Source: Clostridia bacterium
GTDB taxonomy: Bacteria > Bacillota > Clostridia > Oscillospirales > CAG-272
Reading direction: 5' to 3'
Assembly (NCBI GenBank): GCA_017472255.1
Contig: JAFUQU010000041.1
Coordinates: 154 to 24,153 of the forward strand
Length of the DNA stretch: 24,000 nucleotides
Shown here: piece after piece, positions 1,349 through 18,001 of the stretch
Layout: each line of letters opens with the position of its first letter
Numbering within the stretch: the first letter of the stretch is position 1
Translations under genes and position numbers: made by a program
The notes under the pieces: model-generated
The model's database searches: none
What the model was told of the DNA's origin: nothing
Seen by the model: only the letters and a program-made list of their open reading frames with translations

Positions 1349-1374
1349 TTTAGCAGTACAGAGGAGGAATGCAA

Positions 1375-1704
1375 ATGGTCAAATTCCGATCGGGCAGAAA
1401 GCTCATCGAGGCCATCGACGCCTACGTGACCGAGTGCCGCTCAGTCGATACCAAAAAGCCCATCTTCGCCAATATCGCCGGATTCTGCCGCTCCGCCGGT
1501 ATCTCCGTCGGCGATTACCTTTCATTAAAAAAACGCTTCCCCGCCGAATTCGAACTCGCCGGCGCCTACTTCGAAGACGCCGCCCTCAACTCCGGCGCCA
1601 CCGCTTCCCTCGTCGGTATGTACCTCCGCCAATACGGCTACTGGGGCAAACCCGCCGAAGACGAAGTGGTATGCGAGCATGATTTATACGAAGACGGGGT
1701 TTAA
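1375..1704 (+). CDS. Phage terminase small subunit (gp3-like DNA-packaging protein)
   Basis: The ORF is small and lies directly upstream of terL. Its N-terminal HTH-like segment (IFANIAGFCRSAGISVGDYLSLKK) is typical of small terminases. The second ATG (1375) has better spacing to GAGGAGGA than the ORF-track start at 1369. Confidence 0.65.
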   Translation: MVKFRSGRKLIEAIDAYVTECRSVDTKKPIFANIAGFCRSAGISVGDYLSLKKRFPAEFELAGAYFEDAALNSGATASLVGMYLRQYGYWGKPAEDEVVCEHDLYEDGV

Positions 1705-1705
1705 A

Positions 1706-1965
1706 GGGGTACGCGCTTTTCGTGAAAAGCTGTGCAAAAGCTTTATGGTGAGGGATATTTTGGCTTTCCTTCGGGACGGTTTACCGTCCCCGAATGCACT
1801 TCACCCACGGCGTTTACGCTTCAAACTTGTTCGCGAGTGCAGCGCAATTGGTAGGACAGCGCGAACATACTGCTGGCGACAGAGAGCGATTTGTCCTCCG
1901 CGGAACCCTGCCCCCTCCGGCAAATCGGGTTCGCTATAATTTGTTTTGCGTGTAAAGTTACTTTG
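1706..1965. repeat. Left arm of a 624-bp inverted-repeat element between terS and terL
   Basis: The arm starts 2 nt after the terS stop codon. It is an inverted copy of 2073-2329. The first 49 nt are identical and the first ~104 nt carry 4 mismatches by hand alignment. Further in, identical blocks of 31, 17 and 11 nt are separated by diverged patches. Confidence 0.9.
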
Positions 1966-2072
1966 TTTTTTGGATAATATAGGTCGAACCAAATTGCTGA
2001 AATGCCAGTAATAAAAGTTACTTTATTTATAAACCCGACAGTTCAAACAAACTCACTGTGCTGCAAGTGATA
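1966..2072. other. AT-rich core of the inverted-repeat element
   Basis: This ~107-bp AT-rich spacer sits between the two arms. It contains the palindromic 11-mer AAAGTTACTTT at 2014-2024, which is also present at 1954-1964, with the variant AAAGAACTTTT at 2074-2084. Confidence 0.8.
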
Positions 2073-2329
2073 GAAAGAACTTTTGCACGCAAAGCGAGTT
2101 AGAAGTGTCCCGATTTGCCGTAAGGGGTAGGGACCCCTGGAGGACAAATCGCTCTGGGACGCTTAGCCTGTGTACGCGCACGCTTCGTCTGCGCTGCACT
2201 CGCGAACAAGTTTGAAGCGTTCCTTCGTGGGTGAAGAGCATTCCGGGACGGTAAACCGTCCCGAAGGAACGCCAAAACATCCCTCACCATAAAGCTTTTG
2301 CACAGCTTTTCACGAAAAGCGCGTACCCC
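2073..2329. repeat. Right arm of the inverted-repeat element
   Basis: Its reverse complement aligns with 1706-1965. The arm ends 25 nt upstream of the terL ATG. Confidence 0.9.
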
Positions 2330-2354
2330 CCTACCAGAAAGGACTGAATCACAA

Positions 2355-3632
2355 ATGATATTACACGGCAAGCCTAATCCGAAGCAGGCGGAATTCTTCC
2401 GGTCTACTGCGAAGTTTACTGCATACGGCGGCGCGCGGGGGGGCGGCAAGAGTTGGGCGCTGCGGCGGAAGCTGATTGCGCTATGTTTGAGGTATGCGGG
2501 CATACACTGTCTGATTATAAGGCGGACGCTGTCTGAGCTGAGGCAGAATCATGTGATGCCGCTGCTTGCGGAGCTTGGCGGACGGGTGGCGTGGTCGGCT
2601 GGTGAACGGGAGTTTACCTTTGCCAACGGCAGCCGGATTACGCTGGGGTATCTTGCCTGCGATGCGGACACGCTGCGCTATCAGGGTCAGGAGTACGACA
2701 TTATCGCCATTGACGAGGCGACGCAGCTTACCGAGTATCAGTTTTCGACGCTGAAGGGCTGTCTGCGCGGCACGGGGAAATTTCCCCGCCGGATGTATCT
2801 GACCTGCAATCCCGGCGGCGTGGGACACGCCTGGGTCAAGCGTCTGTTTATTGATCGGGATTTCCGGGAGGGCGAGAATCCTTCCGACTACCGATTCATT
2901 CAGGCGCTGGTTTACGACAACGACGTGCTGATGGATTCCGATCCCGATTACGTTCACTCGCTGCAAAGCCTTCCCGATCATTTACGGGCGGCGTGGCTGG
3001 AGGGGCGCTGGGATTTATTCGAGGGGCAGTTTTTCCCCGAGTTTTCGAAGGAACGCCATGTATGCGCGCCTGTCGAGCTGAAATCAAGGCGGCGGTTCGC
3101 TGCTTTTGACTATGGATTTGACCGCTTTGCCCTGCTCTTTTGCTGCATGGAGGGGGATATGCTTTACGTCTACCGCGAGTTCTGCAAGTCGGGGCTGACC
3201 CTCTCGCAGGCGGCGGGGGAGTTGGCGCGGCTCTGTGATGCTGACCGGCAGCGGGGGTTTGATATCGCTTATGCGGTGGCTTCCCCCGATTTATGGAACC
3301 GGCGGCAGGATTCGGGCTACAGCGGTCAGGAGATCATGTCCCGCACCGAGGGCGTGCCGCCTCTTTTGCGGGCGGACAACCGCCGCATTCCCGGATGGCG
3401 CGCCTTACGCGAGACGCTGGACGGGCATCTGCGCATCTTTGAAGGGTGCCGGGAGCTGATTTCGTCCATGCAGGCACTTCTCTGCGACCCGGCGATTCCC
3501 GAGGACGCCTCGGGCGAACCGCACGCTGTGACCCACGCGCCGGAAGCGCTTCGCTACGCGGTGATGTCCCGTTCGGGCGATCGCTGCGATGTGCGGGTTG
3601 ACCGCACAATCGGCGGGCTGGCGAATTTCTGA
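2355..3632 (+). CDS. Phage terminase large subunit
   Basis: It has a Walker A motif (YGGARGGGKSWA), a Walker B-like motif (YDIIAIDEAT) and a C-terminal nuclease-type region. The ATG at 2355 (MILHGKPNPKQAEFF) is preferred because the ORF-track start at 2298 lies inside the repeat arm. Confidence 0.9.
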   Translation: MILHGKPNPKQAEFFRSTAKFTAYGGARGGGKSWALRRKLIALCLRYAGIHCLIIRRTLSELRQNHVMPLLAELGGRVAWSAGEREFTFANGSRITLGYLACDADTLRYQGQEYDIIAIDEATQLTEYQFSTLKGCLRGTGKFPRRMYLTCNPGGVGHAWVKRLFIDRDFREGENPSDYRFIQALVYDNDVLMDSDPDYVHSLQSLPDHLRAAWLEGRWDLFEGQFFPEFSKERHVCAPVELKSRRRFAAFDYGFDRFALLFCCMEGDMLYVYREFCKSGLTLSQAAGELARLCDADRQRGFDIAYAVASPDLWNRRQDSGYSGQEIMSRTEGVPPLLRADNRRIPGWRALRETLDGHLRIFEGCRELISSMQALLCDPAIPEDASGEPHAVTHAPEALRYAVMSRSGDRCDVRVDRTIGGLANF

Positions 3633-3727
3633 GATTCGCCGCTGACAACGATATATCCGCCTCGCGGGGTGCACACTGCGGGGTGCATATATAAATACAT
3701 TACCTACCAAACAGGAGGACAAAAACT

Positions 3728-4552
3728 ATGGCAATTTCCAACTTCATCCCCACCGTCTGGAGCGAGACGCTCCTGAGCGAGCTTGACCACGACTACATCG
3801 GCGTGCGCAACTGCTCCCGCGACTTTGAGGGCGATATCCGCGGCAAGGGTTCGTCCGTCAAGATCAACGGCATCGGCGACATCTCTGTTTTCGACTACAC
3901 CAAGGACACCGATATGCAGACCGCGCAGGATCTGTCCGACACCTCTCAGACCCTGCTCATCGATCAGGCAAAGGCGTTCAACTTCCAGATTGACGACGTT
4001 GACCGCGCCCAGTCCACCCCCAAGCTGATGCAGGCTGCCATGAGTCAGGCTGCTGCGGCTCTTTCCGATGTGGCTGACGCTTATGTCTACTCCCTCTACA
4101 AGAATGTCGCTCCCACGAACACCATCGCCTACAGCGAAATCGTTGCCGAGGACGTGCTGGACATTCTGCTTGACGCCCGCCGCGTCCTGCTCTCCCACGG
4201 CGTGAACAGCAACATTCCCACTTCGCTGGAGGTTTCTCCCGAGGTGGCGGCGCTGATCATCAAGTCCAAGATTCTCAACAACTCGGACAACACCGCCGCT
4301 CTGGAAAACGGCGCGCTGGGCAGCTTTATCGGCTTCGACGTCTACGTTTCCCCCAACATCGCCGTGGTGGACAACCGCTACAAGTGCCTTGCCCGCACCA
4401 AGCGTGCCATCGCGTTCGCCGAGCAGCTCAACGAGGTGGAGGCTTACCGCCCCGAGAACCGCTTCGCCGACGCGGTGAAGGGTCTGCATCTCTACGGCGC
4501 AAAGGTGGTTTACCCCGACGAGGTGGTGCTGCTTGACCTGAGCGTCGGCTGA
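3728..4552 (+). CDS. Phage major capsid protein (HK97-fold type, small)
   Basis: The RBS AGGAGGA is strong. The N-terminus MAISNFIPTVWSETLL resembles the N-terminal signature recalled for some phage coat proteins. The gene sits in the head module and is followed by a hairpin. Confidence 0.65.
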   Translation: MAISNFIPTVWSETLLSELDHDYIGVRNCSRDFEGDIRGKGSSVKINGIGDISVFDYTKDTDMQTAQDLSDTSQTLLIDQAKAFNFQIDDVDRAQSTPKLMQAAMSQAAAALSDVADAYVYSLYKNVAPTNTIAYSEIVAEDVLDILLDARRVLLSHGVNSNIPTSLEVSPEVAALIIKSKILNNSDNTAALENGALGSFIGFDVYVSPNIAVVDNRYKCLARTKRAIAFAEQLNEVEAYRPENRFADAVKGLHLYGAKVVYPDEVVLLDLSVG

Positions 4553-4574
4553 TTCATACGCTGACTTCGTCTGC

Positions 4575-4600
4575 GGCGGGACGGCTCACGCCGTCCCGCC
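4575..4600 (+). terminator. Hairpin after the capsid gene (possible partial terminator or stabiliser)
   Basis: A 10-bp GC stem ggcgggacgg/ccgtcccgcc has a 6-nt loop. The following T-tract is weak (taccttatt). Confidence 0.3.
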
Positions 4601-4623
4601 TACCTTATTAAGGAGAGATTTTT

Positions 4624-4962
4624 ATGACCTGCAACAATATTTACGAAAAAGCATTGGCATTGATCGGCGATATGCCGACGGACGCGGGAACCGAATATTA
4701 CGCCGACCGCGCCCCCGCCCTGCTTTCGATGGTGGTGCGCGAATACGCCCCCATCACCGGAACGGTGGTGCCTGAAATTACGTCGCTGGACGCTTCTTTT
4801 CCGCTGGACGACCGGCTGGCTCCTCCGGCGGCCATGCGGCTGGCGGCGCTGCTTATCATCGACGAGCTGCCCGGCACCGCCGAGGTGCTGAATTCCTCCG
4901 CCGCACGTTCGCTTCAGGCGGTCTGGGGCGCGGAGATTTCGTCGATCAAAGAGGTATACTAA
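4624..4962 (+). CDS. Phage structural protein, possible head-tail adaptor or head completion protein
   Basis: RBS AAGGAGAG. The ORF is 112 aa, sits between the capsid gene and a large structural ORF, and has 1-nt spacing to the next gene. No diagnostic motif was found. Confidence 0.55.
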   Translation: MTCNNIYEKALALIGDMPTDAGTEYYADRAPALLSMVVREYAPITGTVVPEITSLDASFPLDDRLAPPAAMRLAALLIIDELPGTAEVLNSSAARSLQAVWGAEISSIKEVY

Positions 4963-4963
4963 A

Positions 4964-6664
4964 ATGAGCGAGCCGAAGAAACACATCTTTGACGATTTCT
5001 CCTCCGCCGCGCGGATCGACAACTTTCGCGTTACGGCCGACAAACGGCTGGAACAGCGGGGCGGCACCGCGCTGATTCACACCTTCGACGCGCCGCTTCG
5101 GGGGGCGCTGACCGTGGGCGTCAGCGACGGCGAGGAGATTTACGCCGTTTCGGGCAGCAAGCTTTGGCGGCTTACCGAGGCGGACGGGGTATTCACCGCC
5201 GTGTCGCTGGGCACGCTGGAGGACGCGGCGTTCGCGGACGAAAACGAGCGGGTGGAGATGTTCCTGTTCACCGGGAAGCTGTACATTCTGGGCGGCGGGA
5301 ACTATTACTGCTGGGACGGCAGCGCACTGTCCGTGGTGGAGGGTTACATCCCTCTCTGGCGGCGATATTCGGGCGCGACGGGGGGGAGCCAGGCTTACGA
5401 GCGGCGCAATCTGCTGACCAACCGGGTGCGGGAACGCTTCTGCCCCGACGGGGAGAGCCGGGAATTCAAGCTTTACGGCAAGGCGGTGTCGGTGGAATCG
5501 GTTTGGGTTTCCGGCACGAAGCTGGAAACCGATATGTATTCGGTGCGCTTCTCGGAAAACACCGGCTACGTGGAGATGGCGCTCATCTACTCCGAAAATT
5601 CCAACGACATCATTGAAATCTACTACACGTTAGTGGACGATGGACGCCGTTCCGACGTAACCTCCTGTCCCCACGCGGCGGTTTACGGCGGCGACACCGA
5701 CACCCGCGTGTTCCTTTACGGCGGCAGCAACCGCTCGGTCATCTACCCCACCGATCTGGTGGGCGCGGAGGATACGCCCGCCATTTCCGCCGAATACTTC
5801 CCCATTGGCGCGGACATCACCGTGGGTGATGGCAATCTGCGGGTGACGGGCGCGGTGCGGCAGTTCGACCGGCTGGCGATTTTCACGGAGGAGGGGGCGT
5901 TCTACACCTATCCTTACGATGCGGGAACGGTCAACGGCATCCAACGCTTCACCTACCCCATTCTGCCGCTGAACTCGGATGTGGGCGCTACCCGGGAGGG
6001 CGGCGCGGTGCTTCTGGAAAACGAGCCTTACGCGCTGAATCCCAACGGGCTTTACCGCTTCAAATCCACGTCGGTGCGGGACGAGCGTCTGGCGGTGCGG
6101 GTGGAAGCGCCGGATTTCATCGGTCTCGATCGGGAATTCATCGACGCCTGCGGGCTTTATGTGAACAAGCTGCGGGGCGAGCTATGGTGCTATCACAACG
6201 GCGTGATGGCGATTTACAACGCTCGGCTTGATGTGTGGTACCGTTTCACGGGGGTTGATCCGCACTTTATGTTCACGTACCAGAGCGAGGCGGCGTTCGG
6301 CGAGGGTAATTCGCTGTACCGCTTCGGCGAGGGGCTGTACGACGACGAGGGTACGCCCTTTACGGCGCAGTTTGTCAGCCTGCCGCTGGATCTGGGGGCT
6401 GCCTTCGAGCGAAAGACGATCTACGGCTTTGGCGTATCGCTGGAGCGGCGTCCCAGCGCGTCGGTGATCTGCTCCCTTTCCACCGATCTGGGCGGCGAAT
6501 GGTCGCACACCTTTACGCTGGACGAGGGGGACGGCAGCACGCCTGTGGTATGCCATTCCCACGCGCGGCTGGGGCGGGTGGCTTACGCGGTATTTTCGCT
6601 GGAGGCGCCCGGCGGCTGCGATGCTTCCGTCGGCGTCCGCGAGGTGATGGTCGAGGTGAGGTAG
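4964..6664 (+). CDS. Phage virion protein of unknown function (566 aa; possibly tail-hub, nozzle or stabilisation-like)
   Basis: The composition looks coding and an RBS (aagagg) is present. The gene lies within the head module. No catalytic motifs were recognised. Confidence 0.7.
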   Translation: MSEPKKHIFDDFSSAARIDNFRVTADKRLEQRGGTALIHTFDAPLRGALTVGVSDGEEIYAVSGSKLWRLTEADGVFTAVSLGTLEDAAFADENERVEMFLFTGKLYILGGGNYYCWDGSALSVVEGYIPLWRRYSGATGGSQAYERRNLLTNRVRERFCPDGESREFKLYGKAVSVESVWVSGTKLETDMYSVRFSENTGYVEMALIYSENSNDIIEIYYTLVDDGRRSDVTSCPHAAVYGGDTDTRVFLYGGSNRSVIYPTDLVGAEDTPAISAEYFPIGADITVGDGNLRVTGAVRQFDRLAIFTEEGAFYTYPYDAGTVNGIQRFTYPILPLNSDVGATREGGAVLLENEPYALNPNGLYRFKSTSVRDERLAVRVEAPDFIGLDREFIDACGLYVNKLRGELWCYHNGVMAIYNARLDVWYRFTGVDPHFMFTYQSEAAFGEGNSLYRFGEGLYDDEGTPFTAQFVSLPLDLGAAFERKTIYGFGVSLERRPSASVICSLSTDLGGEWSHTFTLDEGDGSTPVVCHSHARLGRVAYAVFSLEAPGGCDASVGVREVMVEVR

Positions 6665-6724
6665 GAACGGCCGGCGGGCTGCCGTACACCCACAAAATTT
6701 TCACACTACAAAAGGAGGACACAT

Positions 6725-6856
6725 ATGCTTATTTTCCTTTACCTGCTTGGCTTCCTTACGGGAGCGGCAGCGGCTGCGCTGGTCGGCTTTCTGCGCAAAA
6801 GGCGCAGAAAGCCCCCTTCCCTCGATGACGAGATGCGCAGCATTTTACAATATTAA
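6725..6856 (+). CDS. Small single-pass membrane protein (43 aa), absent from the ORF track
   Basis: AAAGGAGGA lies 6 nt upstream of the ATG. The product is MLIFLYLLGFLTGAAAAALVGFLRKRRRKPPSLDDEMRSILQY: one hydrophobic helix followed by a basic stretch. The stop codon lies 12 nt before the portal start. Confidence 0.5.
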   Translation: MLIFLYLLGFLTGAAAAALVGFLRKRRRKPPSLDDEMRSILQY

Positions 6857-6868
6857 GGAGGATTTACC

Positions 6869-8392
6869 ATGCAAAACAACATTTCCTGGCGGCAGTTCGA
6901 AGCCGGCCGCGAGTACAACCAGCGGATCGGGCTTTACCAGAACGCCGCCGTCAACGAACGCTTCTATCGCGGCGATCAGTGGAAGTCGGTCAACGCTTCC
7001 ACGCTTCAGACTCCCGTCTTCAACATTGTCCGGCGCATTACCGATTATCTGGTGGCGCAGGCGGCGGCTTCCAACGTGGATATCGTTTACTCGGACGAAA
7101 ATCTCCCCTTCGTGCAGGATGAGGACACCCGCGCGCGCATCGCCGAAGCGGTGGCGCTGCTTAATCGCAACGCCGCCTATCGCTGGGAAAAATGCCGCCT
7201 CGACCGGCTTGTCCGCCAGCTGCTTTTGGACGCGGCTCTTACCGGCGACGGCGTGCTTTTCACCTACTGGGATCCGTCCATCGTAACCGGGCAGGCTTAC
7301 ACCGGAGATTTCGTTACCACCACCGTGGACGGCGCGAATCTGTTCGTGGCGGACGTGAACTCCACCGATTTGCAGGGACAGGCGTACATCATTCTGTCCG
7401 GTCGGGCGGCGGTGAGCGAGCTTCGGGCGGAAGCGCTGGATCACGGCGCGTCCCCCGACGACGCGGCGAAGATTCTCCCCGATGGCGATCTTCACTACGG
7501 CGCGGGCGACTGCGCGGCGCTGGAGAACACCGATGTGTCCATGGAAAAGGCAACCTACATCATCAAGTTTTACCGCAACCGGGCGGGCATCGTCTGCTTC
7601 GAAAAATCCACCCGGGACTGCATCATCCGCACCGCCGAAACCGGGCTCCGGCTCTATCCCGTGGCGATGATGAACTGGATTCCCACGAAGAATTCCTATC
7701 ACGGCACCTCGCCGGTCACGTCGATGATTCAGAACCAGAAGTATATCAACAAGGCTTACGCTCTGCTGATGAAGCATATGATCGACACCGCCTTTTCCAA
7801 GGTGATCTACGACAAGACCCGCATTCCCGAGTGGACCAACGAGGTCGGGCAGTCCATCGGCGTGGTGGGCGGCGATCTGAACGGCGTGGCGACCACCGTT
7901 TCGCCGGGCGCCATGGACGAACGGTTCGGCGAGGTCATCGACAGCGTGCTGACCCACACCAAGGAGACCATGGGCGCTACCGACGCTTCCCTGGGCGAGA
8001 CCAATCCCACCAACACGTCGGCAATTGTGGCGCTCCAGGAGGCTAATTCCGTTACGCTGGATTCGGTGCGCGGTTCGCTGTACAACTGCCTGGAGGAGCT
8101 GGCGGCCATCTGGGTGGACTTTATGTGTGCTTATTACGCGGACGGGCGGATGGTGCTGTCCGGCGAGGGCGTGGCGGCGTTCGACTGCCGTTTGCTGCGT
8201 GGCGAGCTGATTTCCGCACGGGTTGACGTAGGCTCGGCGACCCGCTTCTCCAAGGCGTCGGCGCTGGCGGCGCTGGACAAGCTGCTGGACGGCGGGCATA
8301 TTACGCTGAAGCAGTATCTGGAGCGCCTGCCCGACGGGGTGATTCCCATGCGCGCCCAGCTGATCGACGAGGTGAGCGGCGATGGACGATAA
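6869..8392 (+). CDS. Phage portal protein
   Basis: RBS AAGGAGGA. The N-terminal motif NERFYRGDQW is characteristic of portal proteins. The size is 507 aa. The long minus-strand ORF 6845..8527 is an antisense shadow. Confidence 0.8.
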   Translation: MQNNISWRQFEAGREYNQRIGLYQNAAVNERFYRGDQWKSVNASTLQTPVFNIVRRITDYLVAQAAASNVDIVYSDENLPFVQDEDTRARIAEAVALLNRNAAYRWEKCRLDRLVRQLLLDAALTGDGVLFTYWDPSIVTGQAYTGDFVTTTVDGANLFVADVNSTDLQGQAYIILSGRAAVSELRAEALDHGASPDDAAKILPDGDLHYGAGDCAALENTDVSMEKATYIIKFYRNRAGIVCFEKSTRDCIIRTAETGLRLYPVAMMNWIPTKNSYHGTSPVTSMIQNQKYINKAYALLMKHMIDTAFSKVIYDKTRIPEWTNEVGQSIGVVGGDLNGVATTVSPGAMDERFGEVIDSVLTHTKETMGATDASLGETNPTNTSAIVALQEANSVTLDSVRGSLYNCLEELAAIWVDFMCAYYADGRMVLSGEGVAAFDCRLLRGELISARVDVGSATRFSKASALAALDKLLDGGHITLKQYLERLPDGVIPMRAQLIDEVSGDGR

Positions 8393-8570
8393 GCAGCTCT
8401 CCCCCGAGGAAATCAACGCCGCCAATGCCGCCGCGTCCACCGGGCGTGTCCGGGATGACGGGCGGGGCGCGGTGTTCTTCACCGAAGCGGACGTCCGCGC
8501 GATGACGTCGAAGCAGGTGCGCGCCAACCTGCCCCGGATTCTTCAATCCATGAGCAGCCGGGAGTTTTAA
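8382..8570 (+). CDS. Hypothetical phage protein (62 aa), possibly a truncated N-terminal fragment
   Basis: The start overlaps the portal stop. RBS GAGGTGA. The stop codon lies exactly at the GC-to-AT compositional junction. Confidence 0.45.
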   Translation: MDDKQLSPEEINAANAAASTGRVRDDGRGAVFFTEADVRAMTSKQVRANLPRILQSMSSREF

Positions 8571-8580
8571 GAGGAAATTG

Positions 8581-8628
8581 ACTGTATTTCATGAGATGCT
8601 ATTATGTCAACGTCTCATGAAATACAGT
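8581..8628. promoter_or_regulatory. Inverted repeat (16-bp perfect arms) overlapping the cassette promoter
   Basis: The arms are actgtatttcatgaga (8581-8596) and tctcatgaaatacagt (8613-8628), separated by a 16-nt loop. The right arm abuts the -35 element. This is a candidate operator or an upstream-operon terminator. Confidence 0.5.
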
Positions 8629-8656
8629 TGACAAAACGCAAAGATTATTATATAAT
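8628..8656 (+). promoter_or_regulatory. Consensus sigma-A promoter
   Basis: Exact TTGACA-N17-TATAAT. Confidence 0.7.
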
Positions 8657-8676
8657 ATTTCAAGGAGATTAGATAA

Positions 8677-8826
8677 ATGTTGACAAATCAAAATACCCTT
8701 TGGGTTTATCGTTGCCGTTCTACTGATTCATGCAATGCATGTAGAAAATATGATAGGAAAGTATTCCATGAAAATGATGCCCAAAACTACCGCTACACCC
8801 CAATTGCAGATGTTATTATGAATTGA
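8677..8826 (+). CDS. 49-aa Cys-motif protein, absent from the ORF track
   Basis: AAGGAG lies 8 nt upstream of the ATG. The product is MLTNQNTLWVYRCRSTDSCNACRKYDRKVFHENDAQNYRYTPIADVIMN. The C-x5-C-x2-C...KVF stretch resembles the conserved core of Mu-F/SPP1-gp7 head morphogenesis proteins; this is recalled, not searched. Confidence 0.45.
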   Translation: MLTNQNTLWVYRCRSTDSCNACRKYDRKVFHENDAQNYRYTPIADVIMN

Positions 8827-9605
8827 TATCATCTCAAAATGGGGTACTAATACCTACAGCAATCCCCTCTGTACCTTCATCTCAGAATAATCCTACTGAA
8901 GCTATACCCGAACTTGATATTGAACCTATACACACCTCTTCCGTATCATTGCCAAGTGAACCAATGAAACACATAGATGAATCTATTGTTCCTCAATCTC
9001 TTAGCTATGTGATGAGTGTCAATGAGGCGTTTGATATCATGAATGAATCTGACAATTTGACTCATGTCAGTGATCAAATGATCGAATTACTCAAAAAATA
9101 TGAAACACAATATTCAAGATATTTGATTAAAGATGTACAGGGTAATATAATCGGGATAAAACCGCATGATGTTGGAGACGGTGGAATCACCGTTGGTTTT
9201 GGACACTTTATTAGCAATAAAGAATTACGAACTGATGCTGAAGCCTATAAACTTGCACAGCGCAACTTGTCAGTGGAAGAGGCCACCGCTATAATGAAAA
9301 CGGACTTGGAACGTTTTGAAAAGCAAATACTCAATCTTATGAAAAGGAATGAGATATATCTTGTTCAACATGAGTTTGACGCACTTGTTCTGCAAGCCTA
9401 TAACTATGGTAATGTTAATTACCTTACGGATTTGTTGAAATCAGGAAATCGTGACCGTAATAAGTGGATTGAAGTCATCACAGAACGGATGGAAGTTAAT
9501 AAAGGTAAATTCTACAATGGATTGATGAATCGCAGGTACCAGGAAATGGATTTATTCTTATATGGCGATTATAATGGAGGGCCTGATGTTATTAAATATC
9601 CGTAA
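8823..9605 (+). CDS. GH24 phage-type lysozyme (muramidase) with a Pro/Ser-rich N-terminal extension
   Basis: GH24-like signatures are present: KKYE...GGITVGFGH...EFDALVLQAYNYG...GLMNRRYQEMDLF. The ORF-track start is a TTG that overlaps the upstream stop codon (TTGA). In-frame ATGs at 8964, 9012 and 9039 lack strong RBSs, so the start is uncertain. Confidence 0.8.
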   Translation: MISSQNGVLIPTAIPSVPSSQNNPTEAIPELDIEPIHTSSVSLPSEPMKHIDESIVPQSLSYVMSVNEAFDIMNESDNLTHVSDQMIELLKKYETQYSRYLIKDVQGNIIGIKPHDVGDGGITVGFGHFISNKELRTDAEAYKLAQRNLSVEEATAIMKTDLERFEKQILNLMKRNEIYLVQHEFDALVLQAYNYGNVNYLTDLLKSGNRDRNKWIEVITERMEVNKGKFYNGLMNRRYQEMDLFLYGDYNGGPDVIKYP

Positions 9606-10203
9606 AATTATGCTTGTCACATTAACATTATGGTATGTGAGTATGCTAACTTCATGTTATCACATACAGCAAGATGTTACTGGAAGTGTGTATTTGGTGA
9701 AAATTTCACCTGCATCCGTTCAATCACATACAACGAATAAATGCGACTATCCCGAAATTCACTTGCATGTTGAATCCAACATATCCAATGATTCACGGGA
9801 CGTTGCCGAATATATCGCTCCCGTTCAAGCTGATACAGCCGCAGCTGATCCGGTCGCGCCCGCTCAAACCGCGCCCGCTCTGCCTGAGCCGGATCTTCCC
9901 GAGCCGGACGGCTCCACCGCGTCCATGCTGGCTTACGCCGAGGGTGCCCTCGCCCACTGGCAGGCGCTGGCGGTGTCGCTGCTGGACGAGCGCCCGGAGC
10001 TGGCGGAGGATTACGCCGCCTTCCTCGCGGCGCTGGATGCGGAGGTTGACGTCTATCGGGAGACCTTCCGCGTGGAGGACAGCGACCTTTACGGCAGCAG
10101 CAGCCTTTACGGCAGCAGCAGCCTTTACGGCAGCGCGGTCATTTACGAATGCGTCTGGCTTCGCGCCGTTCGGACGCGGGAGTGGCTGGAGGCACAATGG
10201 TAA
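9586..10203 (+). CDS. Putative lipoprotein, a compositionally chimeric ORF
   Basis: GGAGGG lies 6 nt upstream of the ATG at 9586. The signal peptide has a lipobox (SMLTSC). The N-terminal ~70 codons are AT-rich and the remainder is GC-rich and Ala/Pro-rich. The ORF contains an LYGSSS tandem repeat. Confidence 0.5.
   Translation: MLLNIRKIMLVTLTLWYVSMLTSCYHIQQDVTGSVYLVKISPASVQSHTTNKCDYPEIHLHVESNISNDSRDVAEYIAPVQADTAAADPVAPAQTAPALPEPDLPEPDGSTASMLAYAEGALAHWQALAVSLLDERPELAEDYAAFLAALDAEVDVYRETFRVEDSDLYGSSSLYGSSSLYGSAVIYECVWLRAVRTREWLEAQW
10086..10134 (+). repeat. 18-bp in-frame tandem repeat (about 2.7 copies)
   Basis: cctttacggcagcagcag occurs twice, followed by the partial copy cctttacggcagc. 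The repeat encodes LYGSSS-LYGSSS-LYGS. Confidence 0.9.
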
Positions 10204-10224: not shown

Positions 10225-10271
10225 TATTACCATGTGAATTCGCACTTTTTGTACCACATTGCGCGTACCCC

Positions 10272-10300
10272 TTGACAAATCCGAAAAAAAGCGGTATAAT
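10272..10300 (+). promoter_or_regulatory. Consensus sigma-A promoter of the transketolase operon
   Basis: Exact TTGACA-N17-TATAAT, 50 nt upstream of the start codon. Confidence 0.7.
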
Positions 10301-12543: not shown

Positions 12544-12790
12544 CAAATATTTTGTAAAAAACCAAACGACTGTACATCTCCCTCCCCCACTATCCGCCAA
12601 ACAAAAAGAAATAACACCCCCTCCCCCCGCCTAACGCCTCAAACCCCACCAAACGTGCGTTGACCGCGTTGTCCGCAATAGCCGTTACCAGCGGGCGTTC
12701 GTTGTTCGCACAATAAATTCGCCCAGACAAGCTAAGAAAAGGAATCCCCGCAGCACAATTATGAGTGCGGGAGAATGGTGAGAGGGGAGT

Positions 12791-12852
12791 CTGAGGGGGG
12801 GAGAGGTAAGGAGGGGCGGCTATAGAGCCCCTCCTTATCTCTTCCCCCTCAG
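12791..12852. repeat. Long imperfect G/C-tract hairpin
   Basis: The arms are ctgagggggggagaggtaaggaggggc and gcccctccttatctcttccccctcag, about 25 bp each, around a 9-nt loop. No adjacent T-tract is present on either strand. Confidence 0.6.
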
Positions 12853-14253: not shown

Positions 14254-14446
14254 ATGCAGGAATCCTCTCCAGATAGTAAAATCGGCTGTTGCAAAGCGCA
14301 ACAGCCGATTAGCATTTTCTTTCGGCTTGCGCCTACTCCGGCTCGAGGTTATTGCTAAACCCCTACTGAAAGCTCCATGCAACAAGGCAATCCGGTACGC
14401 TGCTGCATTTCAACGCTTGGACAGATACACGCCGTTATCTGTCGGT
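14254..14446 (-). promoter_or_regulatory. Structured 5' leader or small RNA upstream of the nuclease gene
   Basis: Hairpins are GACAGATA/TATCTGTC (14443-14420), ATGCAGCA/TGTTGCAT (14408-14377), GGC-GCAA-GCC, and then a terminator. Segment 14406-14389 is a degenerate copy of the terminator 3' arm and is a candidate antiterminator. Confidence 0.45.
14278..14310 (-). terminator. Intrinsic terminator or attenuator immediately upstream of the nuclease RBS
   Basis: On the minus strand a 13-bp perfect stem AATCGGCTGTTGC/GCAACAGCCGATT has loop GCTTT and runs into TTTT. Only 7 nt separate it from GGAGAGG. Confidence 0.7.
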
Positions 14447-14501: not shown

Positions 14502-17500
14502 TCACAGCGCATAACCGCCCAGACCGCGCCTCATGTTGCTGACGATCGTCCAGCTGTCGATGCAAAATCCGCCGCCGGAGAGCGGCGTCAGCGTGTAGCG
14601 AGTGGTGCGCGCTTCCATGGTGCAGGATTCGTCGGTGAAGAAGCGAACCGTGACGTAGTACTTCCCGTCCGATTCTTCCTCGCTCAGTACCGAGCTGTAG
14701 ATATAGCTGCCGCCGTGTCCGTCGTGATTGATGGTGCTCTGCTTCGCCAGACCATTCGTCACCGCCTGCCCGAAGTAGCGCTGGCAGTATTCGGCAAATT
14801 GCTTGCCCGTCGTCACCTCGTCGCAGTAGCCCTGACGGCTGAGCCAGCCGAAGAAATCCAGCGCGTTGTGCTGTACAACGTCGATGCTGCCGTCATAGCG
14901 TCCGGTACCGTTCAGCGTAAAGCTTTCCGGATAGGTCGAGCCGCCGTAGCAGGCCGCGAACTGGTACGCCCACTTCCCCGCCTCGGTCACAGGCTTGCTC
15001 CCGAAGCCGAAGTCCAGCGCCAGACCGTTCATGCCGGTGCCCAAAATGATGGAATAGCTCCCCGGCGGAACCAGCGTCACGCCGCTTTTTGTAATCTCCA
15101 CCTCCAGCGTCAGGCTGGACAGATACTGCTCCCGCATATTGGTCCGCAGAATCCGATAGCCGCCAAACTCCATGCTCTCCCATTCGGCGTAGGTTCCCTC
15201 CTCCACGCCGATCAGCTCCTCCAGCGCGGAGACATCGTTGGTAAGGAAGGCGCACAGCCCCCTGTAAACGGTATTTTCCCCGTAATCCTTCCATCCCAGC
15301 TTGGCGAAATCCGCGATGTCGTCCACCGAAACCGGGTCGTCGATGCCGGGATAGTCGATTTCACTGACGTGAAAATCCGAGAAATAGTCGCCCCGGTTCC
15401 AATCGCCCAGCCCGTAGATTCGGTAGGCGGAGAGATAGGCGTCCTCGGTGGTCAGCGTGTAGGTGACCCGGAAGTTCAGCTCGTTGCGCAGCTCGTAGTC
15501 CACGCTCAGCGCGCCGTCCGCCAGATGCTCCGCCGCGTAGCCCGCCGTGTCCAATGCGCCCAGCAGTGCGGCGAGCGTGTCTTCGTCCCGCAGAACGATG
15601 TCGATGTCCTTCTGGTCGTCGTGGAGCGTCACAGTCCCATCCGATTCCGTCACCGTCAGCTGGGCGTCCTTCCAGACTCTGGACGCTTCGCCCACCGTCC
15701 AAGTCGCGCCGTCATCCTCGGATACCCAGGTCAGCGAAGTATAGTTAGCGCAGGTCATCGACAGGCAGAGCCGCCCGTCCTCCTCCCGCCAAAGCGACTG
15801 CACATAAGCAGTTCCCTCGTCGTACAGGCGTTCCGGAACCGTCAGCTCCAGCCAGCGCCAGGTTTTCCCGTCCGACGTAAACTGAATCAGCGGCGTGTCC
15901 GGCGGGTCGGCAAAGGAATGGAAGGTCAGCATCCCCGTCGTTTCATCGGCAAAGGCGACGATTTCCAGATAGTTGTGCATCGCCATGGCGGGACGCGCCG
16001 GATCGTCGGTCTTTACCCAGCTTATGCCGCCGTCGCTGGTCATGTAAACTTCGGTGCGCACCAGCCAGCTTTGGAGCACCAACGCCCCCGCGCTGTCCGA
16101 AATCTGCACGAAATGCACGTTCGCGCCCGTTTCCAGCAGGCTCGCGGCAAGGTAGGCGTCCTCGTCCTCCGGCCAATGCTCCACCGGATTTCGCGGCACA
16201 CTGGTGAACAGACAGTCCCCGTCAATTTCGCCGTCGCCCAGACTGCCGGGCAAACCCTCGATTTCGCTGAAGCGCAGCTCGTGATCGCAGGTGACGCTGA
16301 CATCGTCCGGAATGGCGTCCGGCGCGATGTAAAGCACGCCCTCGGGAATGGCATAGCTGTCCCCGTCGCCGGTGTATTTCAGAAGCATCCGCCCGTCGGC
16401 GGTGAGAATCGCGTCGCCGGTATCGATGAAGGTTCGCTTCTGCCCCACCGAGCAGGCGAAAACCGTTCCCAGCGACAGGCAGATCAGCACGATCGACACG
16501 ATTAATATCCGCCCGCTCCGCTTTTTCGACCCGTCCAGAATCCAGGCAAAGCGCGCCTTGACCGCGTTTTTGCGTGGGTTGAAGTGGGTGGTCAGGGACG
16601 CGGGAGCGCGAGGTGACTTCGCCCGTTTGATCATCGCCAGAAGCGCTTGACCATAGCTGCCCCGCACTTCGCCGGACATTCCCGCCAGCACCATCTCGTC
16701 GCAGGAAAGTTCGCAGGTCTCCTGCGCCCTCGACGCAGCCAGATGCACCAGCGGGTTGTACCAGTGCAGCCCCTGCGCCAGCGTAATCAGCGTTTTCCAG
16801 AAAAGATCATGCCGGCGGTGGTGGCAAAGCTCGTGGGCCAGTACCACGGTCAGCGTAGAATCGCTCATTTCGGCGGCGTAAGCCGGCAGAATCAGCCGGG
16901 GGCGTATCAATCCGCAGAGCATGGGGCTTGCCGTGGCGTCGGAAACGAACAGGCGGGGCGGGCGCTTCACGCTCTGCGCCGCGCAGAAGCGGGCGTAGAG
17001 GGATTTCAGCCGATCGTCGGTGGCGCGGGGCTTTAATTTTGCCGCCCAGAGCGCGTATCCGCCGAACCGCCAGATCAGGAATCCCGCCGCTCCCGTCAGC
17101 CACGCCGCCGCAGCGATGTTCAGCAGGTCGTCGGTGTCAATGGAAAGACTGCGCCGGACAGGTTCGGCAGAGGGCGTTTCGATGGGCGTGGTTTCCGTCG
17201 GCGCGGATGTCTCTACCGGCTCGGTTTCGATTGATTCGGCTTCGGTCGGCTCGGTTCCAATGGGCGGCGCGGCAGGCTCGGAGCGCGTCACCTGAACGGA
17301 GGCGGGCAGCTCCACGCGGATGGGAGCGTAGGACCCGCTGTCCGCCGACGCGGGCAGTAATTCCGTCAGTCCCAGCGGCAGCAGAAGGCGAAATGCCAGC
17401 ACCAGCCAGAGAAGATACCCGCACCTCGCCGAAAACCGCCGCCCCACCAGCCGTTCGACCAGCAGCAGCGCCAGCGCGCAGATACTTACCAGCGCGGAAA

Positions 17501-17531
17501 TGCCTAAATATTGTAAGAAAAGATTGCCCAT
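14502..17531 (-). CDS. BlaR1/MecR1-family M56 membrane metalloprotease sensor with a large non-PBP extracellular domain
   Basis: The zinc motif is AHELCHHRRHD, set in the typical M56 N-terminal membrane topology. The C-terminal ~650 aa carry Asp-box-like motifs (SEDDGATW, TSDGGISW, TSDGKTW) rather than a penicillin-binding fold. Confidence 0.85.
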   Translation of the reverse strand: MGNLFLQYLGISALVSICALALLLVERLVGRRFSARCGYLLWLVLAFRLLLPLGLTELLPASADSGSYAPIRVELPASVQVTRSEPAAPPIGTEPTEAESIETEPVETSAPTETTPIETPSAEPVRRSLSIDTDDLLNIAAAAWLTGAAGFLIWRFGGYALWAAKLKPRATDDRLKSLYARFCAAQSVKRPPRLFVSDATASPMLCGLIRPRLILPAYAAEMSDSTLTVVLAHELCHHRRHDLFWKTLITLAQGLHWYNPLVHLAASRAQETCELSCDEMVLAGMSGEVRGSYGQALLAMIKRAKSPRAPASLTTHFNPRKNAVKARFAWILDGSKKRSGRILIVSIVLICLSLGTVFACSVGQKRTFIDTGDAILTADGRMLLKYTGDGDSYAIPEGVLYIAPDAIPDDVSVTCDHELRFSEIEGLPGSLGDGEIDGDCLFTSVPRNPVEHWPEDEDAYLAASLLETGANVHFVQISDSAGALVLQSWLVRTEVYMTSDGGISWVKTDDPARPAMAMHNYLEIVAFADETTGMLTFHSFADPPDTPLIQFTSDGKTWRWLELTVPERLYDEGTAYVQSLWREEDGRLCLSMTCANYTSLTWVSEDDGATWTVGEASRVWKDAQLTVTESDGTVTLHDDQKDIDIVLRDEDTLAALLGALDTAGYAAEHLADGALSVDYELRNELNFRVTYTLTTEDAYLSAYRIYGLGDWNRGDYFSDFHVSEIDYPGIDDPVSVDDIADFAKLGWKDYGENTVYRGLCAFLTNDVSALEELIGVEEGTYAEWESMEFGGYRILRTNMREQYLSSLTLEVEITKSGVTLVPPGSYSIILGTGMNGLALDFGFGSKPVTEAGKWAYQFAACYGGSTYPESFTLNGTGRYDGSIDVVQHNALDFFGWLSRQGYCDEVTTGKQFAEYCQRYFGQAVTNGLAKQSTINHDGHGGSYIYSSVLSEEESDGKYYVTVRFFTDESCTMEARTTRYTLTPLSGGGFCIDSWTIVSNMRRGLGGYAL

Positions 17532-17533
17532 AG

Positions 17534-18001
17534 CTACTCCTTGTTTTTGCGATTGTGAAGCATTTCCTCCAGCTCGGCGATGTCCTCATCCCCCAGCTCG
17601 TCGCTGTCGATAAGGGACGCCACCAGCTTCTTCCACGAACCCCGGCAGACCCGCTCCACGAAGCTGTGTGAGGCGAAGCGCCGGTAATCCTCCTCGCCGA
17701 TGAGCGGGCGGTAAACCTTGCGCGGGTTGGGCGCGGGGGAATCCTCCCGCTCCATTTCGAGAAAGCCGCGCCCGGTCAGGCGCTCCAGCAAGGTATGCAG
17801 CGTTGCCTTGCACCGCCGCGTTGCCTTGCACCGCCGCGTTGCTTTGCACTGCCGCGTTGCCTTGCACTGCTGCGCTGCATTTGTCTTGATCGCGTCGAAT
17901 TGCCATTGGTCGTAAATTTCCGCCACGGTGATGGGCGGCGTGCAGTGCCAGACGATCATCATGACCTCCAGCTCAGCGTCGGGCAGATGTGGGATATTCA
18001 T
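17534..18001 (-). CDS. BlaI/MecI/CopY-family winged-helix repressor with an internal hexapeptide repeat
   Basis: The N-terminus is LPDAELEVMMIVW...ITVAEIYDQW, and the motif LHTLLERLTGRGFL is present. The gene is translationally adjacent to the M56 sensor gene. Confidence 0.85.
   Translation of the reverse strand: MNIPHLPDAELEVMMIVWHCTPPITVAEIYDQWQFDAIKTNAAQQCKATRQCKATRRCKATRRCKATLHTLLERLTGRGFLEMEREDSPAPNPRKVYRPLIGEEDYRRFASHSFVERVCRGSWKKLVASLIDSDELGDEDIAELEEMLHNRKNKE
17801..17872 (-). repeat. 18-bp in-frame tandem repeat, 4 copies, inside blaI-like gene
   Basis: The plus-strand units are cgttgccttgcaccgccg x2, cgttgctttgcactgccg and cgttgccttgcactgctg. They encode (C)KATR(Q/R) repeats just N-terminal to the recognition-helix region. 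Confidence 0.9.

Follow-up and report, generated by a model that had tools for sequence, protein, structure and literature searches.

Between the small and large terminase genes (terS and terL) of a phage-derived gene cluster in a Clostridia genome lies a 624-bp inverted-repeat element, at 1706-2329 of the window, by which we mean the whole 24-kb stretch of DNA analyzed here. It is probably an inverted doublet, in the manner of a MITE, REPIN or BIME, of a repeat that is specific to this host and dispersed over its intergenic DNA, that is, a non-coding and lineage-specific foldback insertion carried as a tolerated passenger. An ordinary non-coding repeat insertion is the most likely origin because the ends of the element belong to a dispersed, hairpin-rich intergenic family. 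Two inverted repeat units would face each other with their tails on either side of a unique AT-rich segment of 107 bp, and the outward end of each unit would be the family terminus GGGGTACGCGCTTT-hairpin-AAAAGCTGTGCAAAAGCTTTA. The doublet would have been inserted, or assembled, in the roughly 8 nt that separated the stop codon of terS from the ribosome-binding site of terL, with both genes left intact. An earlier note on this DNA, made from the letters alone, had listed several alternatives, and a MITE/PATE-like insertion is the one that fits best.

Gene cluster and the terS-terL junction

The cluster spans about 9 kb (window 1369-10203). The terS-like gene and terL are followed by genes for the major capsid protein, a 112-aa ORF, a 566-aa structural protein, the portal, a lysozyme and an ORF of about 205 aa. 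A SurA-like rotamase gene and a tRNA-Leu gene neighbor it on one side and transketolase genes on the other, and the cluster contains no integrase, replication or tail genes. Relatives in which terL is 60-79% identical are found on contigs of up to 298 kb, often with the same rotamase neighbor. The cluster is syntenic across many such contigs of Clostridia/Oscillospiraceae type (terL identity 60-79%); in one relative (L006 3102-4336) the cluster has 1.2 kb without a called gene where the capsid gene is expected. By analogy, the cluster looks like a phage-derived head, packaging and lysis set resembling a gene transfer agent (GTA) of the FpGTA I type. The podovirus-like FpGTA I operon of Faecalibacterium has a similar layout (PMC12946183), and the two are likened by layout alone.

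The features that flank the element are as follows.

1369-1704, plus strand: putative small terminase gene, terS-like, 111 aa; weak Pfam match to GP3_package (E = 7.7e-4, below the curated cut-off)
2337-2343, plus strand: terL ribosome-binding site GAAAGGA; GGAAAGGA stands at the same place in two relatives (L005 and L094)
2355-3632, plus strand: large terminase gene terL, 425 aa; Pfam Terminase_6N and Terminase_3, and PHROG 979 at 1e-46

The identity of terS is also indicated by its place, directly upstream of terL in relatives. The terS stop codon is at 1702-1704 and the terL ATG begins at 2355, which leaves a gap of 650 nt. A single nucleotide separates the element from the stop codon of terS, and 25 nt separate it from the terL ATG; the foot of its hairpin lies 8 nt before the terL ribosome-binding site. 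The earlier note had called this position unusual, and comparison with relatives confirmed that orthologous loci have adjacent terS and terL. The gap is -1 to 28 nt in five orthologous loci where an upstream ORF was called (L005, L006, L007, L010 and L011; terL 74-79% identical). A further locus, L094, has 15 nt from the terS stop to the terL ATG; this was read from the sequence and counted apart, as the contig is short and no ORF of at least 70 aa fits. When 85 related loci are taken together, the gap has a median of -4 nt and its 5-95% range runs from -11 to about 35. The ribosome-binding-site motif is the same in orthologous loci wherever a spacer is present. No comparable inverted repeat or similarity to the arms was found in about 90 related loci, and the check for the element at the same position in relatives was thus negative. 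As far as the compared sequences go, the element is an insertion exactly between terS and terL, seen in this lineage only.

The C-terminus of terS in the window (...CEHDLYEDGV*) is intact compared with relatives. Because it is intact and the GGAAAGGA-type motif is kept, the element appears to occupy the ancestral spacer, about 8 nt long, and to have left the flanking bases neither duplicated nor deleted. The earlier note had proposed looking for target-site duplications, and there is none at the flanks: gtttaaa before the element and cctaccag after it share no direct repeat. The missing duplication points away from classical DDE cut-and-paste transposition. It points towards spread by a duplication-free mechanism (single-strand, HUH/Y1-type) or by recombination.

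In the two closest terL relatives (P0002 and P0005; 79% identical), the contigs stop 120-270 nt upstream of terL in GC-rich hairpin arrays. These arrays are seen in Logan contigs (L008 1-229, L009 1-272 and L093 1-119), and no terS is present in these contig ends. Homology between the element and this hairpin-rich sequence was considered and dropped, as the similarity was not significant (p = 0.05-0.55). The arrays may be independent repeat insertions, in which case the junction may have been colonized repeatedly.

Structure of the element and the dispersed repeat family

The earlier note had described arms of about 260 nt around an AT-rich core of about 107 bp, and a repeat finder agrees with this description. 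In inverted orientation the two arms (1706-1965 and 2073-2329) share about 82% identity, and no other long inverted repeat occurs in the 24-kb window. Its parts are as follows.

1706-1965, plus strand: left arm (repeat finder, arm-to-arm alignment)
1706-1748, plus strand: left terminal module, made of GGGGTACGCGCTTT, a short hairpin at 1715-1730 and then AAAAGCTGTGCAAAAGCTTTATGG; common to the host dispersed repeat family
1773-1790, plus strand: GC-rich local hairpin GGGACGG-TTTA-CCGTCCC; right-arm counterpart at 2245-2262
1816-1846, plus strand: 31-nt block, perfect between the arms; counterpart at 2190-2220
1887-1927, plus strand: hairpin CGATTTG...CAAATCG, with stems 1887-1893 and 1921-1927
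1954-1968, plus strand: 15-nt direct repeat 1, AAAGTTACTTTGTTT, with the near-palindrome AAAGTTACTTT, at the arm-core border
1966-2072, no strand: AT-rich asymmetric core, GC about 0.3
2014-2028, plus strand: 15-nt direct repeat 2, AAAGTTACTTTATTT, at most 2 nt from the dyad center at 2017.5
2073-2329, minus strand: right arm (repeat finder, local folding)
2287-2329, minus strand: right terminal module, the same as the left one (arm alignment)

The repeat finder resolved the inverted repeat into three collinear segment pairs: an outer pair (1706-1809 with 2226-2329; 104 nt, 96% complementary), a middle pair (1816-1846 with 2190-2220; 31 nt, 100%) and an inner pair (1859-1964 with 2074-2179; 106 nt, 71%). 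The arms as a whole are collinear over about 255 nt. Alignment of the left arm with the reverse complement of the right arm gave perfect runs of 51, 25, 11, 31, 17, 12 and 8 nt between heavily substituted patches, and the substitutions comprise 23 transitions and 31 transversions. The mismatches are clustered non-randomly; in a permutation test, a 31-nt perfect run within the inner 151 columns, which hold 45 differences, had p ~1e-4. The patchwork conservation that the earlier note had noticed is therefore statistically real. Such alternation of perfect and scrambled stretches could be a sign of constraint on parts of the arms, and a pure passenger would have no need of such constraint. The local hairpins lie where that note had placed them, at 1715-1730, at 1773-1790 and at 1887-1893 with 1921-1927, the last pair enclosing 27 nt. 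The right-arm counterpart of the 1887-1927 hairpin has a better inner stem, AGGGGT/ACCCCT, which is absent from the left arm.

The 107-bp core (GC 0.29-0.36) has no residual dyad symmetry (p = 0.82), and we therefore rejected the idea that it is the decayed continuation of the palindrome. The exact 11-mer AAAGTTACTTT occurs at two sites only in the 24-kb window, both within the 15-nt direct repeats. With at most one mismatch there are 4 matches (the two sites, on both strands), compared with 0.17 expected. The element was found with identical sequence and orientation (100%) in three separate metagenome assemblies and is therefore not an assembly artefact. A fourth contig, from Logan, stops 30 nt into the right arm, as an assembler with k = 31 does at inverted repeats.

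The outer ~40 nt of each arm (GGGGTACGCGCTTT-hairpin-AAAAGCTGTGCAAAAGCTTTA) are the sharply bounded end of a dispersed intergenic repeat. The host DNA compared was 42 kb of one 52.6-kb scaffold. A local blastn search matched the outermost 14 nt of the arm, and its nt 20-40, to an unrelated intergenic region that lies upstream of the element by about 6.6 kb and of the window start by 4.9 kb. The local alignment score of the module against this solo copy is 32, compared with 17.8 +/- 2.3 for shuffled sequences. Another 10 kb of the host scaffold contained four additional copies (4900-4961, 6430-6491, 8146-8207 and 9849-9892 in L095 coordinates), and together with 12766-12827 this makes five further module copies within 18 kb on the same scaffold. 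All module copies are intergenic and share an abrupt boundary exactly at GGGG, beyond which the flanks are unrelated. Most of them cap hairpin-rich mosaic units of about 210-660 nt, which are mutually 83-92% identical and occupy six intergenic regions within 18 kb of the scaffold. The main difference between the arm module and the other copies is a 26-nt GC hairpin tip that is missing in the arms. Elsewhere on the scaffold, family units are single and asymmetric; one end is defined by GGGG and the other varies. The family members, and one fragment inside the window, are as follows.

L095 4301-4961, 6430-6727, 7717-8207, 9849-9968, 12617-12827 and 14540-14812 (3-13 kb upstream of the window): mosaic units that share the GGGGTACGCGC... 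end with the element
10261-10271 of the window, minus strand: 11-nt module-end fragment GGGGTACGCGC, directly abutting the -35 box of the transketolase promoter

The transketolase promoter (10272-10300, plus strand) is a perfect TTGACA-17-TATAAT. A second perfect TTGACA-17-TATAAT promoter, for tRNA-Leu(GAG), is at 122-150 on the minus strand, and CCCC precedes both promoters.

Module ends are found either 1-3 nt past a stop codon or 25-78 nt ahead of a start codon. Three repeat ends are only 1-3 nt past the stop of the neighboring gene (window 1705/1706, L095 4961-4965 and L095 9845-9849), and the bases just outside the GGGG boundary are often AA. The stop-codon-proximal ends and the AA may reflect a target preference, judged from three ends only. 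A rule that the GGGG end always faces a gene was considered and discarded, because compact intergenic regions put a gene at both ends of any element. The GGGG terminus is also suggestive of Tn3-type ends. These were rejected, as a 5-bp duplication is lacking and other copies accommodate a 26-nt hairpin insertion within the "end".

The earlier note had asked whether an arm is a dispersed repeat at unrelated loci. This holds for the outer ~40 nt, which recur at no fewer than five unrelated intergenic sites of the same scaffold. Within the 42 kb of host DNA compared, no second copy of the arm interior (inner ~220 nt) or of the core turned up. Searches of IMG/VR, GTDB species representatives, JGI metagenomes, plasmids and phages also returned no match to the arm interior or core. 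Blastn of the element against plasmids and phages returned nothing, and exact or gapped DNA patterns from four arm blocks had no match in IMG/VR. Pseudo-translations of the arms, used as degenerate patterns, matched nothing in GTDB representative genomes or JGI metagenomes, and pseudo-translations and open frames matched none of 5.8 billion proteins. The arms were considered as the remnant of a coding gene and this was dropped, as their open frames have no Pfam match. Homology of the arm interior to the mosaic family beyond the module was likewise not significant (p ~0.22), and blastn gave nothing. No single-arm copy of this subtype was found in the collections or in the 42 kb of host DNA.

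A gapped pattern of the terminal module, which matches three of the scaffold copies and both arm ends, returned nothing real from GTDB representatives, JGI metagenomes or IMG/VR. One GTDB match was attributed to chance, as it lies within a coding region of an AT-rich genome. The repeat family therefore seems to be restricted to this lineage, which these collections do not represent. Rfam had no match for the L095 repeat family, and a full-text search of the literature for the motifs gave only unrelated primer coincidences. A transposase, Y1/RAYT or recombinase family was found in 0 of the 20 window ORFs scanned against Pfam, and precomputed Pfam matches indicated no transposase, Y1 or recombinase among the called genes in the rest of the 42 kb.

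Folding, transcription and rival explanations

As a single strand, 1690-2345 (656 nt) folds at -417.5 kcal/mol, compared with -200 +/- 9 for shuffled sequences (z = -24.8). The left arm alone gave local folding z values from -0.7 (-0.66, no better than shuffles) to -2.3. The right arm alone folds better than the left arm and better than shuffles (z from -3.6 to -3.8), and an 11-bp local stem (2217-2227 with 2262-2272) is present in the right arm only. There were no compensatory changes between the arms in 66 predicted consensus pairs. Rfam 15 covariance models gave nothing on the arms at the gathering threshold; weak matches to generic long-hairpin plant miRNA models were far below it. The earlier note had favored two diverged copies of a structured RNA or of a protein-bound DNA element and had suggested a search of the arms against Rfam. 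The lack of an Rfam match, the 0/66 compensatory pairs and the left-arm z of -0.66 speak against the structured-RNA reading.

No terminator-like or promoter-like site was found inside the element, no U-tract follows its hairpin, and an automated scan found no sigma-70-like promoter in 1150-2500, which covers the element and its flanks. An extended -10-like TGnTATACT (TGcTATACT) was seen by eye at about 1337-1345, upstream of terS, where the automated scan reported none. Because of this by-eye site, the element is presumed to be transcribed within the operon. The transcribed element would form an imperfect RNA hairpin of about 260 bp. Such a hairpin would remove the tight translational coupling of terS and terL seen in relatives, and translation of terL would then rely on its own ribosome-binding site, 8 nt beyond the hairpin foot. 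The hairpin would also be a natural substrate for a double-strand-specific RNase and might be cleaved. A long hairpin of RNase III type in a read-through transcript is plausible as a consequence of the predicted fold. Since relatives do not share the element, this is no sign that the hairpin was selected for control.

It is nevertheless conceivable, though unlikely, that the insertion has been co-opted as a selected regulatory RNA, in which the intercistronic hairpin is cleaved (e.g., by RNase III) or slows transcription and so sets the terS:terL ratio or the timing of terL. Such a role would agree with the very stable fold, with a foot that is only 1 nt away from the stop codon of terS and 8 nt away from the ribosome-binding site of terL, with the non-random alternation of conserved and variable blocks, and with a right arm, beside terL, that is locally structured beyond shuffles (z ~-3.7). 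However, all relatives are without the element and keep terS and terL coupled, and the arms show zero compensatory pair changes, no Rfam family and no U-tract after the hairpin. Furthermore, the ends are generic host repeat ends, which elsewhere lie beside unrelated genes. A dedicated packaging or control role is unlikely because every relative is without the element. The absence from relatives and the generic ends also weigh against a packaging (pac) recognition region or another DNA site of the terminase, which the earlier note had also offered and which we regard as barely credible. A position between terS and terL is a frequent one for pac sites, and the DNA is structured and potentially protein-bound, but no orthologous cluster that was examined has the element. 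The Faecalibacterium GTA, an analog by its similar layout, packages apparently random fragments, and its TerS has no obvious DNA-binding domain (PMC12946183).

Two further readings concern how the arms and core came together and what they do. In one of them, which we consider improbable, two independent insertions took place, one by the terS stop and one by the terL start, with their GGGG ends towards the genes, and the "core" is made of their unrelated distal tails. Single asymmetric units are indeed the form of the family elsewhere on the scaffold, other family ends are also 1-3 nt after stops or 25-78 nt before starts, the core has no symmetry, and the inner parts of the arms are only 71% identical. 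Against this, the arms are collinear over about 255 nt with a perfect outer 51-nt block, no single-arm copy of the subtype was found, and the ancestral spacer of about 8-28 nt would be a very small target for a double strike. The other reading, an invertible DNA switch in which arm-arm recombination flips the AT-rich core and has an on/off effect upstream of terL, had been raised in the earlier note. Inverted repeats around an AT-rich segment immediately upstream of a gene, and a near-palindromic 11-mer at the arm-core border and at the dyad center, are what would suggest it. However, 1150-2500 has no promoter-like site, and nearby host promoters match the consensus perfectly. No recombinase family was matched in the 20 window ORFs or among the other called genes of the 42 kb. 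All three independent assemblies have the same orientation, although assemblies represent a consensus that a minor orientation could escape. In addition, the arms are long and only 82% identical, compared with the short perfect repeats of known invertons. We therefore consider a switch very improbable.

Comparison with known systems

The doublet insertion that we prefer shares several properties with MITEs. Like them, the element is short, non-coding and intergenic, it has terminal inverted repeats (outer 51 nt identical, outer 104 nt 96%), and it is absent from the orthologous sites of relatives. MITEs that are co-transcribed and fold as RNA hairpins include Correia/NEMIS in Neisseria, ERIC/IRU in enterobacteria and RUP in pneumococcus. 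Similarly, the whole element, if transcribed, would be a hairpin that is a possible RNase target and could alter expression of the flanking cistrons. Unlike MITEs, it has no target-site duplication, its arms are about 260 nt rather than 20-50 nt, and only its outer ~40 nt are demonstrably multi-copy. We know of no parent insertion sequence with the ends of the element.

Likeness to REP, BIME and REPIN sequences lies in the hairpin module of about 40-65 nt, which has a sharp end, is scattered over intergenic regions, often just past stop codons, and is combined with other hairpin motifs into mosaics as in BIMEs. As in a REPIN, two inverted modules (1706 on the plus strand and 2329 on the minus strand) form one large hairpin, and there is no target duplication. 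However, the element is 624 nt long compared with roughly 100 nt for a REPIN, and its inter-module sequence is long and unique. The GTAG that typically lies beside the REP palindrome is not reproduced, and the host belongs to a Clostridia lineage and is not a proteobacterium.

Invertons of the fimS type also have inverted repeats around an AT-rich segment upstream of a gene; the repeats of the element are ten times longer and imperfect, and no promoter, recombinase or second orientation was found. The RNase III hairpins of phage late operons, such as the T7 R sites, are likewise intercistronic hairpins within a phage-type structural operon. T7 R sites are short, conserved and part of the phage design, whereas the element is a 624-nt lineage-specific insertion with host-repeat ends.

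A bolder form of the insertion reading has a small chance of being right. The module-terminated units would represent an undescribed mobile intergenic element of uncultured Oscillospirales-type Clostridia, which spreads without target duplication and docks 1-3 nt from stop codons, and the doublet would now serve a GTA-like operon as a co-opted RNA hairpin by which terL expression is uncoupled and tuned.

If the element is a doublet of the host repeat, a striking structure at the terminase junction is a local copy of the host's own intergenic repeat, and this cautions against interpreting the structure as a switch or packaging signal. The analysis also documents an unclassified family of hairpin-rich mosaic repeats in the genome of an uncultured Clostridia member, of a kind that is already known as genome-specific palindromic intergenic repeats. 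In addition, the locus offers a natural example of a GTA-like cluster whose terS-terL coupling, invariant elsewhere, is broken by 650 nt while the genes are intact, and this could be used for testing how important the coupling is to particle production.

Elsewhere in the window, a gene for a BlaR1-like M56 sensor-peptidase of 1009 aa (14502-18001, minus strand) adjoins a gene for a BlaI/Penicillinase_R-type repressor. Just downstream of the peptidase gene and on the same strand, at 14307-14418, lies a full-length drum RNA (Rfam RF02958), which scores 92 bits compared with a gathering score of 43.
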